Source: Nitrosopumilales archaeon (GTDB lineage Archaea; Thermoproteota; Nitrososphaeria; Nitrososphaerales; Nitrososphaeraceae). From it: a stretch of 13,641 nucleotides of DNA. Positions within the stretch are counted from its first letter, which is position 1. Every line of letters begins with the position of its first letter. The stretch is taken from positions 9,594 to 23,234 of the forward strand of contig JBIQJB010000030.1 in the NCBI GenBank assembly GCA_044507735.1, given 5' to 3'. The notes beneath the pieces are model-generated. The model searched no databases. It was given only the letters and a program-made list of their open reading frames with translations, and was not told where the DNA came from. The position numbers and the translations under genes were made by a program. This document shows, piece by piece, positions 2,385-13,201 of the stretch.

Positions 2385-3368
2385 CTATCTGTATTCGTCG
2401 CCACAATCCCCGATAGCCTCAAAGAGGTTGTCTGATTTTTTGCAAACATCTTCGATCCTGCCGTTGTCGTCGCTGTCAAGCCTGAAGCCAAAGACGCGTG
2501 CATTGTCATCGATGTGGTTTGATATCCCAAGCCGCGCGCCGATAATCACTCCAGCCACTGCAGGCTTGTCGAGGATATAGCGCGTGGCCACGTTTGCGAT
2601 GCTGACCCCGTGCTTCTTTGCTATCGTGTCCAGCGCCGAGAGCAGCTCTTGGAAAAGCTCCCATCCTCCCCAGATGTCTACCATGCGCTTGTATTTCTTG
2701 AGGCTTGCAGTGTCAAGGTCATGGGGCTCAGGCTTTCCTACATACCGCTCTGACATGAGGCCGCCGCAGATGGTGCCGTAGGCAAGCAGGCTAGTCTTGT
2801 TTTCCTGGCAAAATCTCGCCATCTTGACCTCGGGCCTGCGGTCGACAATCGAATACTGCACCTGGTTTGACACTATCTGGATGCCTGCGTCCTTCATTAT
2901 CTGCATGCGCTCTGTGTCAAAGTTGGTCAGGCCGACGTTCCTTATCTTGCCCTCGATCCTAAGATCCGACAGGTACTTTAGCGCGTCAATGTAGTACGGG
3001 TTGTTGTAGTCCCACCAGTGGAACTGCACAAGGTCAAGGGCGTTCACTCTCATGCGCCTGAGCGAGCGCTCGATGCTTGCCTGCGCGATCTGCTTTGTTA
3101 TCCGTTGGGGCTCTGGCACCCACTTTGTAAGGGCCTGCATTTTTTGCCGCTCGTCTTCCGGCAGCCTCTGCCTGAATTCTCCGACAAAATCCTCAGCTGG
3201 GCCGTAAATGTCGGCAAGGTCCCACGTGGTAAATCCCGCATCGTGATATTTTCTCATGTCCTCCACCGCGGCCTGCGGATTGATGCGCCCGTGCGCCCCT
3301 GCAACCTGCCACATGCCGTTGAGGACCCTGCAGATCTTTAACCCCGGTGCCAGCTCGTAGTGTTCCAT
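2385..3368 (-). CDS. Aldo/keto reductase family oxidoreductase (327 aa)
   Basis: AKR motifs: GMWQ, WDLADIYG (catalytic Asp and Tyr), LTKW (Lys), LDLVQFHWW (His), GKIRNVGLTNF, NQVQYS, VIIGA. Confidence 0.95.
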   Translation of the reverse strand: MEHYELAPGLKICRVLNGMWQVAGAHGRINPQAAVEDMRKYHDAGFTTWDLADIYGPAEDFVGEFRQRLPEDERQKMQALTKWVPEPQRITKQIAQASIERSLRRMRVNALDLVQFHWWDYNNPYYIDALKYLSDLRIEGKIRNVGLTNFDTERMQIMKDAGIQIVSNQVQYSIVDRRPEVKMARFCQENKTSLLAYGTICGGLMSERYVGKPEPHDLDTASLKKYKRMVDIWGGWELFQELLSALDTIAKKHGVSIANVATRYILDKPAVAGVIIGARLGISNHIDDNARVFGFRLDSDDNGRIEDVCKKSDNLFEAIGDCGDEYR

Positions 3369-3493
3369 CTCTCTATCTCACTATCTCACTCTTCTCGCAA
3401 CCATTTCCATGATAAATCTTACCCGTTTTGTTGTAAGCTAACTTGCAGCATTGAAAATGTTGACTCTTTTATTTTTCAAACAATCGTTACAGT

Positions 3494-3898
3494 GGATGTT
3501 GCGCAAAACGAAAGCATGGCGCAACATACACCTGCAGACAGCAACGAATGAAAAACCATGGCTGATGGCGCTGAATAGGAAAGACCCAGATGTTGACGTA
3601 CGTACGTAAGTTGAGCGCAGAGATATTGCTGAGGGTGCTGTAAGGGAAGAGGGTAACGGAAATGTCGCGGTATAAACAGGGATGGCACGGGCCGGAGCAC
3701 ACAGCCGTCAATGGATGGCAAGGTTAGCCGGCCAGTTGCAACCGTGCGATCCCGAAAAAGCTGCAGGTGATGAAGCGTTCACGCATTTCGGTTGTAATCT
3801 GAACGTACGAAAGTAAGCAACGAGGAAAAACACACAAGAAAAAGAGGGATGCGCTGGCCCGCAATGACGTGCATTGGGCGGGTCGGCAGTTCATCCCC
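3494..3898 (+). ncRNA. Candidate large structured non-coding RNA (~400 nt), family unrecognised
   Basis: No convincing ORF. Stems at 3496-3504/3519-3527, 3529-3537/3761-3769, 3679-3690/3742-3753, 3775-3781/3800-3806 and 3846-3862/3878-3897, with A-rich linkers. G-U wobbles favour the + strand. Boundaries inferred. Confidence 0.5.
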
Positions 3899-3923
3899 AA
3901 TCAAAATTATAAAATTGTTCTAT

Positions 3924-4076
3924 CTAGTGGTGATGGCCACCGCAGCCACATCCACCCATGCCGTGGTGTCCGCCAGATGATGACATCGACGCACATGAGG
4001 GGCACTTGCTGGAACCGTTCTCGGACATGAACATGACGCCGCATGAGGCGCACTTTGTCTTTTGCAATCCTTGCAT
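3924..4076 (-). CDS. Small zinc-ribbon protein with Gly/His/Cys-rich tail (50 aa), absent from the ORF track
   Basis: Manual translation MQGLQKTKCASCGVMFMSENGSSKCPSCASMSSSGGHHGMGGCGCGGHHH*. A TATA-like TAATATT (4099-4105, minus) overlaps the upstream gene's stop codon, about 23 nt before the ATG. Confidence 0.8.
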   Translation of the reverse strand: MQGLQKTKCASCGVMFMSENGSSKCPSCASMSSSGGHHGMGGCGCGGHHH

Positions 4077-4102
4077 GCACTCATGCTGCAACCGCTAGAA
4101 TA

Positions 4103-4834
4103 TTAACCACTCGTCGTTCTCTGGATCGCAAGCAGGCTCTTTCGAAAGAGTGAGACTAGGAGCATGGCGTCCTTTTCCGTGGGAGTGCCCTTTGCCAGGA
4201 GCTTTTTGACCGCCGCCTCAAGCAGGGGCTTTTTGTGAAGGTCATAATTGCTGGCATCTGCAACCTTGCCCACATACTGGAGCACAAGGTCAGTGTCACA
4301 CTGCGACGCAGGCCTCATGTTCTTCTTTGTCTTTCTTGCCGGCAACCCTGGCTCCTGCTTTGAAATTTCATACAGGATCACAGCAAGAGCATGGGACACG
4401 TTCATTGTGCGGTATCTTGTTTTTGTGTCAACCAGCGCCACGAGGTCGCACATCGCTAACTCTTCGTTGTTGAGACCCGAAGCTTCCCTGCCAAGCAGTA
4501 TGCAAAATTTCTTGCCGCTGCTTTCGTGGACTATTCTGGACAGCTCCTCCGCGCAAATGGATTCGCGCAGGACGTTGAGCCGGCTTGTGGCCTGTATTGC
4601 AGTCGTTCCAACGAGCACGTCAAATTTTTTCCTCAGTTGCTTTAGAGAGACTGTCTTTGCAGACGCGAGGATGCCCTTGCCATGCGTAGAATATCTTACA
4701 GCCTCGTCCATGTCAAAGTCCGGATTGACAAAGTACAACTTTCTGTGACCAAAATTCTTCATCAGTCGTGCAACGTGGCCGACATTGATGTGCCCGTGAG
4801 GCTCCACCAGTGCGACTGCTATCACCGCTATCAC
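4103..4834 (-). CDS. trmJ: SPOUT-family RNA 2'-O-methyltransferase, TrmJ/TrmH group 1 (~243 aa)
   Basis: Motifs LVEP..INVGHVARLMKNFG, LLGREASGL and TMNVSHALAVILYE. Start placed at GTG 4834 (alternative 4825), downstream of ATAAAT at 4855-4860 on the minus strand. Confidence 0.88.
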   Translation of the reverse strand: MIAVIAVALVEPHGHINVGHVARLMKNFGHRKLYFVNPDFDMDEAVRYSTHGKGILASAKTVSLKQLRKKFDVLVGTTAIQATSRLNVLRESICAEELSRIVHESSGKKFCILLGREASGLNNEELAMCDLVALVDTKTRYRTMNVSHALAVILYEISKQEPGLPARKTKKNMRPASQCDTDLVLQYVGKVADASNYDLHKKPLLEAAVKKLLAKGTPTEKDAMLLVSLFRKSLLAIQRTTSG

Positions 4835-4996
4835 TACGCAAAATCCCGCCGCCCATTTATGCTTTTGACTTTTTTCCAAAATTATTCGTGATGCTCGAAC
4901 ACACGGATATTTGTAGACATGGCTGAAGCTGCAGCAGATCTATTTGTGGTGGCGTTGCAAAGGATACTGGTGTAAAAGAAACGAAGGGCTAACTTG

Positions 4997-5149
4997 CTAG
5001 CGTGGTATTTCCCTGCGCGGTACCTCCTTGAAATACCCGCATTGGCAAATTAGTACTGCAGAGCGGCTTTCAATTTCGTGCTCTGCAATGCAGACGGCCT
5101 CGGACGCAGACCTTCCGCAATTCGGACACTCCTTACGGATGGTTCTCAA
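4997..5149 (-). CDS. Small CPxCG zinc-ribbon protein (50 aa), absent from the ORF track
   Basis: Manual translation from TTG: MRTIRKECPNCGRSASEAVCIAEHEIESRSAVLICQCGYFKEVPRREIPR*. CPNCG and CQCGY knuckles. An in-frame TAG just upstream limits the start to this TTG. Confidence 0.7.
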   Translation of the reverse strand: MRTIRKECPNCGRSASEAVCIAEHEIESRSAVLICQCGYFKEVPRREIPR

Positions 5150-5284
5150 GGGTTGTGTAGCCTAGCCTTCACTTCCGCGTCTTTATGATTTATGAATGGA
5201 TGTTCTAGTTTATTGTACTAAACGTTTTTGACCTTATTAAGGAACGTTCGGCGATAGTGGTAAAGTGAGAGTGTGGCTACTAAT

Positions 5285-5809
5285 TCATGCGTAAAACGCC
5301 GCTAGTGCCTCATCTATTCTCTCTTCAGGCACTCCGAAAAACTCGAATGCATCTTTTCTGGTTGCAACTTGAAGGTTGGAGTTTGATGTAGCCTTCAGGT
5401 ACGCATCTGACGCCCCTTCCATGATTGGTCTGGCATATGCATTCCACTGCGCAAGGCTCTCCTGCTCAGGGTTCTTCAAGATGGCAGCCAGCCTTGCAAA
5501 GGCTGCTATTGCAGCGACTCTGTATTTTTGAAGCATCATCTTGCGCTGATCATTATCGGGAAGCGACGGAACAAGCGAGCACATGCGGAACTGATATTCG
5601 TCAAGGTTCTTGGCTATGCTTGCAGCCTGCCCTATTGCTGGCATGCTTTTTCTCGCGGCCCTCATGTCTTGCACTGACGTTGCCTCAAAAATGCCCGACA
5701 TGCCTCTGATGCTCAGGTCAGGAGAGGTCACACCGTCTCCTGATAGGACCCTGGTACAGCCAGAGCCAGCCAGGTGTCTTGAGACTATTGCGCTTAGGAT
5801 CGACGCCAA
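5285..5809 (-). CDS. Hypothetical protein (174 aa)
   Basis: Long ORF with TTG start, helical-looking composition and TTTTTAAT upstream (5843-5850, minus). No motif recognised. Confidence 0.7.
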   Translation of the reverse strand: MASILSAIVSRHLAGSGCTRVLSGDGVTSPDLSIRGMSGIFEATSVQDMRAARKSMPAIGQAASIAKNLDEYQFRMCSLVPSLPDNDQRKMMLQKYRVAAIAAFARLAAILKNPEQESLAQWNAYARPIMEGASDAYLKATSNSNLQVATRKDAFEFFGVPEERIDEALAAFYA

Positions 5810-6048
5810 TTCTTTGTCTTCTTGATAGTGGCGATGCCGGACATTAAAAATGGTATGATGATGAAAAATGATAATCCTGGCACAAGTGGCTTGAGCTGCA
5901 ATTTCTTTTGCAAACTATCTGCGATTGGAATCACGCGCTCATTCCTTATGGTTTTTGTTTCAACCACGCCTTCAGGCAGAATCACTTTTTTTCTCGCTGC
6001 CATCTTGTCGAACGAAACTAAAATTCGCATCTTGCGTGCGTTGCTCAA
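5794..6048 (-). pseudogene. Probable 5' remnant of tnpB running on into host intergenic DNA
   Basis: The TTG start overlaps the tnpA TGA (TTGA, 6045-6048), the usual tnpA-tnpB coupling. The basic N-terminus TKTIRNERVIP..LQKKL loosely resembles the first strand of TnpB/Cas12f. There is no RuvC or zinc finger, and the last ~30 codons cross the next gene's promoter. Confidence 0.4.
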
Positions 6049-6449
6049 ACTTCGCGTTTCTGCTCTTCAACATACTTTTTGATTACGTCCATTGAAACAT
6101 GACCGTATGTCGATACAAAATAGCTTCTGGTCCAGAGGGTTGGCAACCTCGTTCTCAGCTCAGGAAATTCCTGTCTCAGAATGCGAAATGTATAACCCTT
6201 CAAATTGGAAACAATTCTGTTAGGAGTGTGAATTGGCTGTGCTTCGAGGAATATGTGGACGTGGTCCGGTTTTATTTCCAAAGAAACTAGTTTACAACCT
6301 ATTTCCTTGACTCTTTCTAGCAACAGTGCCCTCAATCGCTTTTCAATGTTGCCAACCAGAACTTTTCTTCTATACTTTGCACACCAGACAAAATGGTAGT
6401 TCATGAAGTGAACCGAAGTCTCTGATTTGCTGTAGCCTTTTGGCAACAT
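6045..6449 (-). CDS. tnpA: IS200/IS605 family HUH (Y1) transposase (134 aa)
   Basis: YHFVWCAKYRRKVL, HUH motif PDHVHIF, LKG, LWTRSYFVST and catalytic Tyr in IKKYVEEQK. ATG 6449 is preceded by ATATATAC about 20 nt upstream. Confidence 0.96.
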   Translation of the reverse strand: MLPKGYSKSETSVHFMNYHFVWCAKYRRKVLVGNIEKRLRALLLERVKEIGCKLVSLEIKPDHVHIFLEAQPIHTPNRIVSNLKGYTFRILRQEFPELRTRLPTLWTRSYFVSTYGHVSMDVIKKYVEEQKREV

Positions 6450-6508
6450 CGGCTTAGATGTCTGGTATGTATATATGATTTTCTGATAAGCGACTGCGAC
6501 TGCGAATG

Positions 6509-6562
6509 AGAAGCAAATCTCCATCCTGCGCGTAAACGACACGAAGTTCTTGTTTGCCTTCT
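6509..6562 (-). repeat. IS200/IS605 left-end subterminal imperfect palindrome
   Basis: Minus strand CTTCGTGTCGT-TT-ACGCGCAGG (6525-6546) forms a bulged hairpin with a CGTTTACG apex, enclosed by the inverted repeat AGAAGCAAA (6509-6517) / TTTGCCTTCT (6553-6562). Confidence 0.65.
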
Positions 6563-11663: not shown

Positions 11664-11669
11664 AGGTGA
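11664..11669 (+). promoter_or_regulatory. Shine-Dalgarno sequence of coxA
   Basis: AGGTGA ends 5 nt before ATG 11675, implying a leadered mRNA and that GTG 11666 is not the start. Confidence 0.7.
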
Positions 11670-11674
11670 TTCTC

Positions 11675-13201
11675 ATGGTGCTGGAAGTCCGTCAGCCGCG
11701 CCCGCTCTGGGAAATCCTCTTCTCGACGCACCACACAGACATCGGTCTCTTGTACATCATCTTTTCCCTCACGCTGTTCTTCATGGGTGGCGCACTGGCA
11801 ATTGCCATACGCAGCGAGCTCTTCCTCCCGGGCGGCGGAGACATAATTCCAGACTCCAACACTTTCCACAGGATATTTACTGTGCATGGAACAACAATGC
11901 TTTTCCTCTGGGTAATCCCGTTTGCTTCCGGCATTGGCAACTACCTGATCCCGATCATGGTCAGGTACAAGGACATGGCCTGGCCTAAGCTGAACGCTGT
12001 TGCATTCTGGATGATTCCTGTGGGAGCTGCTCTGGTGTGGCTTGGATTTGCAGATACTGGGTGGACTGCATACCCTCCATATTCCATTCTGCGAGCACCG
12101 GGTCCGGCAGCGGATATGTGGATTTTTGGCTTAAAGATACTCGGCATTTCGTCGATACTTGGTTCGATCAACTTTATCGTTACAATACTTAAGATGAAGC
12201 ATCCGGATCTGCCGCTTATGAGGACGTCGCTTTTTACCTGGTCAATTCTTTCGACTTCGCTGATAATCCTCGTTTCCATGCCTTCTTTTGCCGCGGCGCT
12301 TATCATGACGTACACCGACAGGCTCGGGATATCCGGATTCTTCAATCCCGCAATGGGCGGAGACCCTCTGGCCTACCAGCACATGTTCTGGTTTACCTTC
12401 CATCCGGAGGTCTATGTCTTTCTGCTGCCTGCAGTCGGTATCATATACGAGGTCATACCGAAATTCTCAAGAAAGCCTGTCTTTAGCTACCAATCAGGGG
12501 TTGTTGCCTTTGTCCTGTTGACGATCGTTTCATTTGCATCATGGGCTCATCACATGTATGCAACAGGAATGAGCTTTACCGAAAAGACTGTCTTTATGGT
12601 AGGTACCCTGGCAGCAGTGCCAGCGTCAGCTATGCACATTTTCAACTGGGTTGCAACCATGTGGGGCGGAAGGATCAGGTTCAGGGCACCCATCACATTT
12701 GCCGTTGGTGGCATTGTCCTGTTCTTCCTGGCAGGAGCAGGTGGTGTTGTCAACAGCGCCATGCCGCTAGACTTCCTCACTCATGACACTTACTGGGTGG
12801 TGGGGCACATGCACCTGTTCCTCATGGGCCTGATAACACACGCATTCGTGGGGTTTGTGTACTATCTATTCCCGCTTATCACCGGGAGAATGTACAACGA
12901 AAGGGCCGCTATGGTGCATTTCTGGCTCATGTTCATTGGAGTGGCGCTGATATTCATCACCCAGCACTTGCTCGGGCTCTATGGCCAGCCAAGGCGTGTC
13001 TTTGACTATGTTCCAGTGCAGCCTCTGATCATAATGAACCAGATATCGACGGTTGGCGCATGGGTAGTCGCAGCGGGCATGATGATCTTCCTTGTAAACC
13101 TCATCAAGAGCACGGTATCGGGCAAGCCCGCCAAGATGGATGACCCATTTGAGATTGGAGAGCAATACTACGACTATAGGCGGCGCGTGCCACACCACTG
13201 A
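11675..13201 (+). CDS. coxA: Heme-copper (cytochrome c-type) oxidase subunit I (508 aa)
   Basis: All six His ligands present: TVHG, WFTFHPEVY (A-type HPEVY), WAHHM, GHMH. Also DMAWPKLN, GWTAYPP, GGDP and PRR. Confidence 0.97.
   Translation: MVLEVRQPRPLWEILFSTHHTDIGLLYIIFSLTLFFMGGALAIAIRSELFLPGGGDIIPDSNTFHRIFTVHGTTMLFLWVIPFASGIGNYLIPIMVRYKDMAWPKLNAVAFWMIPVGAALVWLGFADTGWTAYPPYSILRAPGPAADMWIFGLKILGISSILGSINFIVTILKMKHPDLPLMRTSLFTWSILSTSLIILVSMPSFAAALIMTYTDRLGISGFFNPAMGGDPLAYQHMFWFTFHPEVYVFLLPAVGIIYEVIPKFSRKPVFSYQSGVVAFVLLTIVSFASWAHHMYATGMSFTEKTVFMVGTLAAVPASAMHIFNWVATMWGGRIRFRAPITFAVGGIVLFFLAGAGGVVNSAMPLDFLTHDTYWVVGHMHLFLMGLITHAFVGFVYYLFPLITGRMYNERAAMVHFWLMFIGVALIFITQHLLGLYGQPRRVFDYVPVQPLIIMNQISTVGAWVVAAGMMIFLVNLIKSTVSGKPAKMDDPFEIGEQYYDYRRRVPHH

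Follow-up and report, generated by a model that had tools for sequence, protein, structure and literature searches.

A probable uncatalogued structured RNA gene restricted to part of the archaeal genus Nitrososphaera

The orphan large noncoding RNAs (ncRNAs) of bacteria, including OLE, GOLLD, ROOL, HEARO and raiA, are several hundred nucleotides (nt) long, fold into many covariation-supported helices, and are abundant and noncoding within narrow lineages where neighbouring genes give no guide to function. Such RNAs have repeatedly led to new biology, and ROOL, GOLLD and OLE were recently reported to form homo-oligomeric assemblies; to our knowledge, very few orphan large RNAs are known in archaea. 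Here we describe a candidate RNA at positions 3494–3898 (+ strand) of a 13,641-nt stretch of archaeal DNA (hereafter the window; GenBank assembly GCA_044507735.1, contig JBIQJB010000030.1, positions 9,594–23,234), which shares with the bacterial RNAs this size range, helix content, narrow distribution, abundance, lack of coding capacity and uninformative neighbourhood, and differs from them in being archaeal, smaller, without a score in Rfam, apparently processed to a core of ~190–240 nt and found in part of a single genus. Archaeal RNase P RNA and signal recognition particle (SRP, 7S) RNA are likewise stable, structured, abundant and driven by their own TATA-type promoters, but both are universal, whereas the present RNA is dispensable and lineage-specific and has no motif in common with them.

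The segment 3494–3898, together with a promoter region at 3419–3481, is probably an uncatalogued, lineage-restricted structured ncRNA gene of Nitrososphaera, the genus of the host genome (2.33 Mb in 55 contigs), in which the unit is single copy. The RNA family is new, confined to part of one genus, dispensable, and abundant where present. Soil ammonia-oxidising archaea are major players in the nitrogen cycle, and the RNA would be their third abundant structured RNA after those of RNase P and SRP, its fold backed by covariation. Because it is present in cultured strains with existing RNA sequencing (RNA-seq) data it is open to immediate study, and its patchy presence within one genus offers natural presence/absence comparisons. 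A full-text literature search, covering main texts, found no report of a large ncRNA in these archaea apart from RNase P and SRP RNA; supplementary files may list unannotated Nitrososphaera transcripts. In the passages matching that search, a preprint on a Nitrososphaera transcriptome names SRP and RNase P RNA as the sole abundant ncRNAs.

Structure and conservation of the RNA

The candidate RNA lies within a 555-nt gap between genes (3369–3923) in which none of five open reading frames (ORFs) tested matches a Pfam family and no reading frame is conserved, in agreement with the original prediction, made from the letters alone, that the gap holds no credible gene. That prediction had proposed an independently transcribed RNA of ~400 nt carrying six stems behind a T-rich run, and all six stems and the run are present in the sequence where it placed them. 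The features of the unit, with helices numbered P1, P2, P4 and P7, are as follows.

3419–3442, + strand: upstream element TTACC-N-TTGTAAGCTAAC, semi-palindromic, ~55–75 nt before the RNA, conserved in alignments
3460–3481, + strand: promoter-like region with a TTGAC box (3460–3464) and a T/A-rich, TATA-like box TTTTATTTTTCAAAC (3467–3481)
3467–3474, + strand: T-rich run TTTTATTT of the original prediction
3494–3898, + strand: predicted primary transcript, start predicted at 3494–3505 and end past the terminal hairpin, from folding z-score, full-length homologues and homologue RNA-seq
3496–3504/3519–3527, + strand: 5′ hairpin ATGTTGCGC/GCGCAACAT, whose loop holds the conserved motif AAAACGAAAGC
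3510–3515, + strand: 5′ strand of putative helix P1, GAAAGC, partner 3783–3789
3529–3537/3761–3769, + strand: long-range helix P2, 5′ strand CACCTGCAG and 3′ strand CTGCAGGTG
3538–3678, + strand: variable purine-rich region with clade-specific hairpins, differing in length and sequence by clade (z −0.19 for 3560–3625)
3568–3575/3611–3618, + strand: originally predicted stem GCGCTGAA/TTGAGCGC, inside the variable region, at chance level
3679–3753, + strand: central hairpin P4, three helices (P4a–P4c)
3679–3690/3742–3753, + strand: P4a, GGGATGGCACGG/CCGTGCGATCCC, enclosing GCCGG/CCGGC and GCCGTC/GATGGC
3691–3695/3728–3732, + strand: P4b, helix of the central hairpin
3704–3709/3714–3719, + strand: P4c, with an AAUG loop
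3733–3741, + strand: conserved 9-nt bulge CAGUUGCAA, with the word GUUGCAAC and the self-complementary UUGCAA
3775–3781/3800–3806, + strand: originally predicted stem GCGTTCA/TGAACGT, at chance level
3783–3789, + strand: 3′ strand of putative helix P1, GCAUUUC with A3785 bulged, the start of a conserved motif reading GCUUUCAGUCGUGCUG in most relatives
3820–3845, + strand: A-rich linker; the aligned stretch of the relative G087 contains the 3′ ends of abundant species
3846–3897, + strand: terminal hairpin P7, outer stem 3846–3851/3892–3897 and inner stem 3853–3862/3878–3887
3868–3884, + strand: nearly invariant stretch CGTGCATTGGGCGGGTC in P7

Folding of the window sequence favours the + strand. 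The whole 405 nt gives a z-score of −3.26 on the + strand, with 0 of 100 shuffles as good, compared to −1.82 on the minus strand, in line with the dense pairing originally described. The central hairpin (3679–3753; −4.41 on + and −2.06 on minus) and the terminal hairpin (3846–3898; −3.69 and −1.67) behave alike, and the 5′ hairpin reaches −3.76. The regions of stems 3568–3575/3611–3618 and 3775–3781/3800–3806 are at chance level (z −0.19 and −0.15), and these two stems lack conservation in relatives. Of the six predicted stems, four are supported and these two are not. Among the four, P2, P4 and P7 show covariation in the alignments below; the 5′ hairpin persists in three adjoining clades alone (A–C, the window's among them), shows no compensatory changes, and may lie partly upstream of the real transcript start. 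The RNA is purine-rich, with A or G at 252 of 405 bases.

Full-length, single-copy homologues were aligned from 23 of 72 species genomes of the genus. Alignment A4 comprises 29 distinct sequences and 54 base pairs, taken from 22 genus genomes, the metagenome contig L121, which replaces a cut copy in the 23rd genome (G005, L019), and six new metagenome contigs, with identical copies removed; alignment A3 comprises 19 of 23 sequences and 27 pairs, with four sequences that have a different central hairpin left out. Both are MAFFT alignments, not fitted to structure, and the average column identity of the A4 sequences is 47%. In A4, 84.5% of cells are paired compared to 33.8–43.1% when strands are slid, and the covariation score is 0.222 compared to 0.066–0.103, a control comparison that is somewhat favourable because the structure was derived from the same sequences. 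None of 500 shuffles matched the observed pairing, double-changed cell count or score, and both sides have changed at 23 of the 54 pairs. For the central hairpin and two 3′ helices in A3, 74.6% of cells are paired compared to 33–45% when slid, with a score of 0.312 compared to ~0.10–0.12 and 0 of 500 shuffles reaching it. Across relatives G-U cells outnumber A-C cells by 152 to 72, an excess that points to the + strand and upholds the original reading of mismatches as G-U pairs. By these alignments, compensatory changes and G-U pairs on the + strand preserve helices P1, P2, P4 and P7.

Individual helices differ in the changes they carry. P4 has strong covariation at single pairs (AU 17/GC 8; AU 14/GC 11/GU 3; GC 11/AU 7/GU 4). 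P2 forms 8–9 of its 9 pairs in each of 13 clade A and B sequences, with double changes from U-A to C-G and from G-C to A-U, and by eye a CCUC/GAGG helix takes its site in other clades. The terminal hairpin taken alone has both-side changes at 5 of 12 pairs and many G-C to G-U steps (UA 21/CG 5 and CG 28/AU 1 at two pairs, with many G-U); its 5′ arm covaries, and there is almost no variation in the loop and 3′ arm across the 29 sequences. Fifteen columns of the hairpin are invariant. The bulge of the central hairpin reads GTTGCAAC in 23 of 29 sequences and GTTGCGCAAC, which is also self-complementary, in two sequences from separate clades, and is missing in four sequences of one clade. L043 and L040, from separate clades of the RNA tree, both carry GUUGCGCAAC at the bulge (A4 columns 337–344).

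The alignments also point to a long-range helix absent from the original prediction, P1, that would join a conserved 5′ GAAAGC to a 3′ GC(A)UUUC. Its cells are paired at 86–88% in the 29 sequences and pass through an A-U to G-U to G-C series, most sequences having GAAAGC/GCUUUC, with GAAGGC/GCUUUC in L017 and L020, GAAGA/UCUUC in L026, and GGAGCC/GGCUCC in a register shifted by one in L108. Duplex folding predicts a second block, GCGA/UCGU, in most sequences, and in those that have the 5′ hairpin P1 would form a pseudoknot between loop and strand. Local helices on the 3′ side of P1 are tentative and vary between two large groups of clades. All four family features are found in the window: the upstream TTGAC and T/A-rich boxes, GAAAGC/GCUUUC, the bulge word GUUGCAAC, and GTGYATTGGGCGGG in the terminal hairpin.

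A small protein gene, or a dual coding and noncoding RNA, is hardly credible at this locus. An ATG-started frame does run over the central hairpin in the window (44–45 codons, 3682–3816, product containing AGQLQPC) and in the relative G087, and the two share short peptide motifs (AGQLQPC, AFSR). The conserved blocks nonetheless fall in different frames in close relatives (L049 compared to L032 and L016), a UAG cuts the frame in the 8 of 29 sequences where GGTTAGTTGCAACC replaces GGCCAGTTGCAACC, and substitutions are compensatory for pairing. We reject the frame because frames differ between close relatives, stops interrupt it and it has no Pfam match.

Promoter region and expression in a cultured relative

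The TTGAC and T/A-rich boxes are conserved across clades, and each homologue keeps its own box although the neighbouring genes change. Comparable T/A-rich boxes stand 22–33 nt upstream of the RNase P and SRP RNA genes of the window's genome, a resemblance that strengthens the original placement of a T-rich promoter just upstream of the RNA. The element at 3419–3442, which in other clades reads ACCAA-N4-5-TTGGTARGYTAA, is possibly a regulator binding site. Each upstream element occurs just once in the genome of the window.

Expression data come from G087, the complete single-contig genome of a cultured congener that carries the homologue at locus L055. The homologous stretch is present in 20 RNA runs from 6 studies, and we mapped three raw stranded RNA-seq runs to L055:850–1900. 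Depth reaches 3400–6200 over L055 1354–1497 in the three runs, with the first mate on the minus strand at ~50:1, which as in most stranded libraries indicates + strand RNA; a + strand transcript, as first proposed, is seen in a congener. Flanking depth is 0 in two runs and 10–470 in the third, placing the homologue at ~10 to >100 times its flanks. In two runs no read maps up to position 1209, and coverage starts in the bin 1210–1245, ~20–35 nt after the aligned T/A-rich box.

These transcripts also bear on a cis-acting, riboswitch-like leader of a downstream same-strand gene, which we hold to be extremely improbable. The cis-prenyltransferase gene uppS lies on the same strand ~50–500 nt downstream at all four scanned loci of the D, E and L040 lineages, as a leader would require. 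Against a leader, two of three G087 runs show no read-through, the depth dropping to 0 before uppS is reached, downstream genes are convergent in the window and its clade and differ by clade, and three congeners have uppS without the RNA.

Coverage within the G087 unit is uneven. The 5′ third (L055 1210–1317) has 1–7% of core depth, which suggests processing, and the stretch aligned to the variable region 3538–3678 is at this level too. Read ends are sharp, at 1335 on the 5′ side and at 1515/1527 on the 3′ side, and many short inserts span L055 1351–1455, the central hairpin, which is the most abundant part of the RNA; a break at 1455/1456 recurs in contigs of run X1 from another study. Through the alignment the abundant core maps to window ~3650/3660 to ~3840/3852, with 1515 and 1527 corresponding to ~3840 and ~3852. 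In this relative the abundant species thus covers just ~190 nt or more on the 3′ side of the unit, rather than the ~400 nt of the original prediction.

Circular RNA was considered as a source of back-joined reads and rejected. Reads joining 1450 back to 1324 (39 reads from only 2 start places) and 1451 back to 1322 (4 reads) make up <1% of depth, and others sit at a direct repeat. In L055 1237–1290, reads going back 51 (1290 to 1240; 68 reads, 18 start places, one run) lie at the direct repeat GACGCAGG, and because of this position template switching is probably their origin rather than a circle.

Distribution, competing explanations and known families

Among the 72 species genomes of the genus, 24 contain the most conserved word of the RNA, CGTGYATTGGGCGGGYC, with 0–1 mismatch, and two-mismatch matches are no commoner than those of a reversed-pattern control. 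These tallies (38 of 72; 24 with 0–1 mismatch) include the unpublished genome G009, whose locus L044 was left unused. Of the 30 loci from the scan, L025, L028, L031, L035–L037, L039 and L045 (two-mismatch, without the other motifs) were unaligned, and L023, which is not alignable, and L030, a hairpin alone, also stand outside the alignment. Homologues turned up by an initial BLAST search came from 8 of 24 congeners; the 16 genomes searched from other families of the order had none. A covariance model built on the terminal hairpin (R1) scores 80.8 bits on the window, which belongs to its seed alignment. It matches 12 of 20 congeners and none of 130 genomes from 17 further genera of the family; across the order it matches 5 of 6 congeners and gives two weak matches (25 bits) among 145 other genomes, which we take as chance. 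R1 covers the terminal hairpin alone and could miss divergent relatives that lack it. Among public contigs a pattern search gave 19 matches, 14 of them titled Nitrososphaera or Nitrososphaeraceae, and R1 confirmed 14 of these 14 and 0 of the remaining 5; scans of public contigs yielded six further distinct sequences, including L104 with 88% identity to the window. Viral contigs gave 0 matches to the RNA pattern.

Several observations weigh against an ncRNA gene with the fold and processing described here. The RNA is patchy in the genus and missing from many congeners, and five high-quality congener genomes have no R1 match at E<=0.01 (best E 0.08–0.97), in three of which the racemase gene and uppS that border the RNA elsewhere are directly adjacent with nothing between. 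All that survives in G046 (L087, G046:C31) is the terminal hairpin's 3′ half with the sequence behind it, and G063 (L030, G063:C55) keeps the hairpin without the RNA body. No sites complementary to three conserved motifs with <=3 mismatches were found in the window's own genome beyond the locus. P1 is mostly invariant and so rests on few changes; for L108/L117 and four sequences of clade B it forms only in a shifted register, which goes uncredited in a column count. Expression evidence comes from the relative G087 rather than the window's organism. The low 5′ coverage there could be partly technical, and the terminal hairpin (L055 1534–1569) has a depth of only 0–12 in two of three runs. Random-primed libraries under-cover transcript ends, and this hairpin is either cleaved off or is a stable 3′-terminal hairpin not primed by random hexamers.

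The truncated loci are informative in themselves. At L087 the hairpin remnant lies ~530–600 nt upstream of uppS and unrelated sequence replaces the RNA body; because only half of the hairpin survives and the body is replaced, we conclude that the gene was recently lost in G046. At L030 an A-rich linker and the whole terminal hairpin are retained beside a Cys/His-rich ORF and the upstream RNA body is replaced; the terminal hairpin may have a separate use, such as terminating transcripts of the convergent ORF. Being missing or truncated in many congeners, the RNA is dispensable.

This distribution could also be produced by a relic, for example of a degraded gene or mobile element, that is still transcribed without having a function and is merely stabilised by its hairpins, which we judge improbable. 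Its patchiness within the genus and loss or truncation in several genomes would fit, as would neighbourhoods that differ by clade, IS605-type genes adjoining the RNA in one genome, and a conserved 14-mer, TTTCAGTCGTGCTG, that is found again within a paralogous aldo-keto reductase gene in congeners. A relic would not be expected to keep four helices by compensatory changes at only 47% average column identity, nor invariant unpaired motifs and a conserved promoter region. The original suggestions of a ribozyme-like RNA and of a relic of a mobile RNA have no support here: the unit is single copy, is absent from viral contigs and has no adjoining transposase gene in the window.

The reductase likeness was followed across genomes. 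A scan of 238 genomes of the family found the exact 14-mer in 15, of which 6 are the RNA locus; among eight other sites inspected, six lie in the paralogous aldo-keto reductase gene, and one in another genus and one in a congener are not RNA-like, with one additional match in another genus outside the eight. The reductase-gene sites (L131, L132, L134, L135, L139 and L140, all in congeners) encode the peptide ISVVLPTM, and, oddly, a different aldo-keto reductase gene adjoins the RNA in the window. Descent from an aldo-keto reductase gene was rejected: the likeness covers only 20–48 nt, at E 2e-4 or weaker even in a five-sequence database, and because it extends no further we treat it as chance.

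The terminal hairpin raises the question of whether there is an RNA gene at all, as it might be a (bidirectional) terminator for the convergent small ORF at 3924–4091, the rest of the gap being untranslated flank with chance pairing. Archaeal termination requires only oligo-T, and like hairpin and U-run terminators the terminal hairpin is G+C-rich, has an A-run upstream and has a T-run downstream in many homologues. In the window the T-run follows it on the minus strand, where the hairpin, 27 nt past the stop of the ORF, precedes CTCTTTTTCTT; in many homologues a run of T4–T8 follows shortly after it on the + strand; and in one genome (L030) the hairpin stands without the RNA body. We nevertheless consider a terminator without an RNA gene very improbable. 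The hairpin is also present where the downstream gene, uppS, is co-directional; its loop and 3′ arm are nearly invariant and its 5′ arm covaries, unlike terminators; its wobble pairs fit the + strand; and the upstream body is conserved, covarying and the most abundant part of the transcript, with + strand RNA seen in G087. A terminator role may exist alongside another role, and with T-runs on either strand in many species the hairpin may help termination in both directions.

Comparison with known RNA families favours the ncRNA gene reading of a family of its own. A search of the whole window against Rfam 15 (4227 models, including RNase P, SRP, tmRNA, 6S, group I/II introns, OLE, GOLLD, ROOL, HEARO and raiA) gave 0 matches at gathering score; at E<=10 it gave two 17–22-nt fragments at region edges (E 0.92 and 5.6), which we judged to be junk. 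Four homologues gave 0 matches to Rfam 15 at E<=5, and the RNA remains, as first described, of no recognised family. A divergent RNase P or SRP RNA was rejected because both are found on other contigs of the same genome (archaeal RNase P RNA, RF00373, 177.9 bits, G000:C3; SRP RNA, RF01857, 119.6 bits, G000:C10).

Guide and mobile-element RNAs were rejected by their motifs and context. In C/D box small RNAs (sRNAs) a C box (RUGAUGA) and a D box (CUGA) are joined by a terminal stem in ~50–70 nt; here GUGAUGA (3767–3773) and CUGA (3799–3802) are only 25 nt apart with no stem around them, and L033 and clades D–F lack the C box. Archaeal H/ACA guides have a hairpin with a two-sided pocket, together with a kink-turn (K-turn) or K-loop and, immediately downstream of the stem, an ACA box. 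P4 is followed by GAAAAAG and P7 by CAATCAAAA, with no ACA, the P4 bulge is one-sided (9 nt), and no GA/GA motif is conserved across the alignment. An omega RNA of IS200/IS605 elements (TnpB/IscB) was rejected, the only transposase gene in the window being 2.1 kilobases (kb) off and the RNA single copy; a TnpB-like ORF (OrfB_IS605 with a Cas12f1-like TNB domain) was found beside the RNA in 1 of 10 neighbour ORFs scanned, in convergent orientation (G082). A paralogue or repeat was likewise rejected, as the unit is single copy and its upstream elements are unique in the genome.

Candidate role and genomic neighbourhood

The conserved features of the ncRNA gene can be assembled into a model of its maturation. 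A ~400-nt transcript would start 20–30 nt downstream of the T/A-rich box, and its 5′ motif (GCG..AAAC GAAAGC) would clamp onto the 3′ motif (GCUUUC AG UCGU). P1 with P2 would close a junction, from which extend the conserved central hairpin and an arm that is variable and purine-rich. Removal of the 5′ third would then leave a stable core of central hairpin and 3′ motif, with or without the terminal hairpin. Archaeal ribosomal RNA (rRNA) precursors have leader–trailer processing stems, and the modelled arrangement is similar in that a 5′ leader pairs past the mature domain (P1/P2) and is scarce at steady state; it differs in that we recognised no bulge-helix-bulge motif and that the core ends in purine-rich single strands, not in a helix.

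As to function, we tentatively propose a stable RNA that acts in trans by binding to a protein or a second RNA, as a ribonucleoprotein or scaffold. Its likely contact surfaces would be the CAGUUGCAA bulge, the AGUCGUGCU stretch and the GUGCAUUGGGCGGGCC arm, because these are invariant and mostly unpaired. An architectural, self-associating RNA, in which two copies kiss through the bulge as an archaeal counterpart of the bacterial homo-oligomeric RNAs, is a more doubtful possibility; such kissing would account for the finding of UUGCAA in 23 of 29 sequences and its lengthening to the still self-complementary UUGCGCAA in two separate clades. On this reading the cleaved precursor could also be self-processing.

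The genes around the RNA in the window are listed here.

2385–3368, minus strand: aldo-keto reductase gene (Pfam PF00248, E 5e-73), one border of the gap
3924–4091, minus strand: small Cys/His-rich ORF of 55 codons, the other border of the gap
4103–4879, minus strand: TrmJ-type RNA methyltransferase gene, next after the Cys/His-rich ORF
6045–6542, minus strand: IS200-like Y1 transposase gene (Y1_Tnp; PF01797, E 1e-38), 2.1 kb from the RNA and the sole transposase gene in the window
11666–13201, + strand: haem-copper oxidase subunit I gene (CtaD/CoxA; E 1e-155)

Flanking genes vary by clade, with the aldo-keto reductase gene, the Cys/His-rich ORF and the TrmJ gene in the window's clade and a racemase gene and uppS elsewhere. 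The Cys/His-rich ORF encodes two CxxC pairs and the tail GGHHGMGGCGCGGHHH, with weak zinc-ribbon or rubredoxin-like Pfam matches (E 0.007–0.1), and its product could be a small metal-binding protein; its 3′ end stays conserved beside the RNA in three clades, the window's own and two next to it. The CtaD/CoxA gene fits an aerobic ammonia oxidiser.

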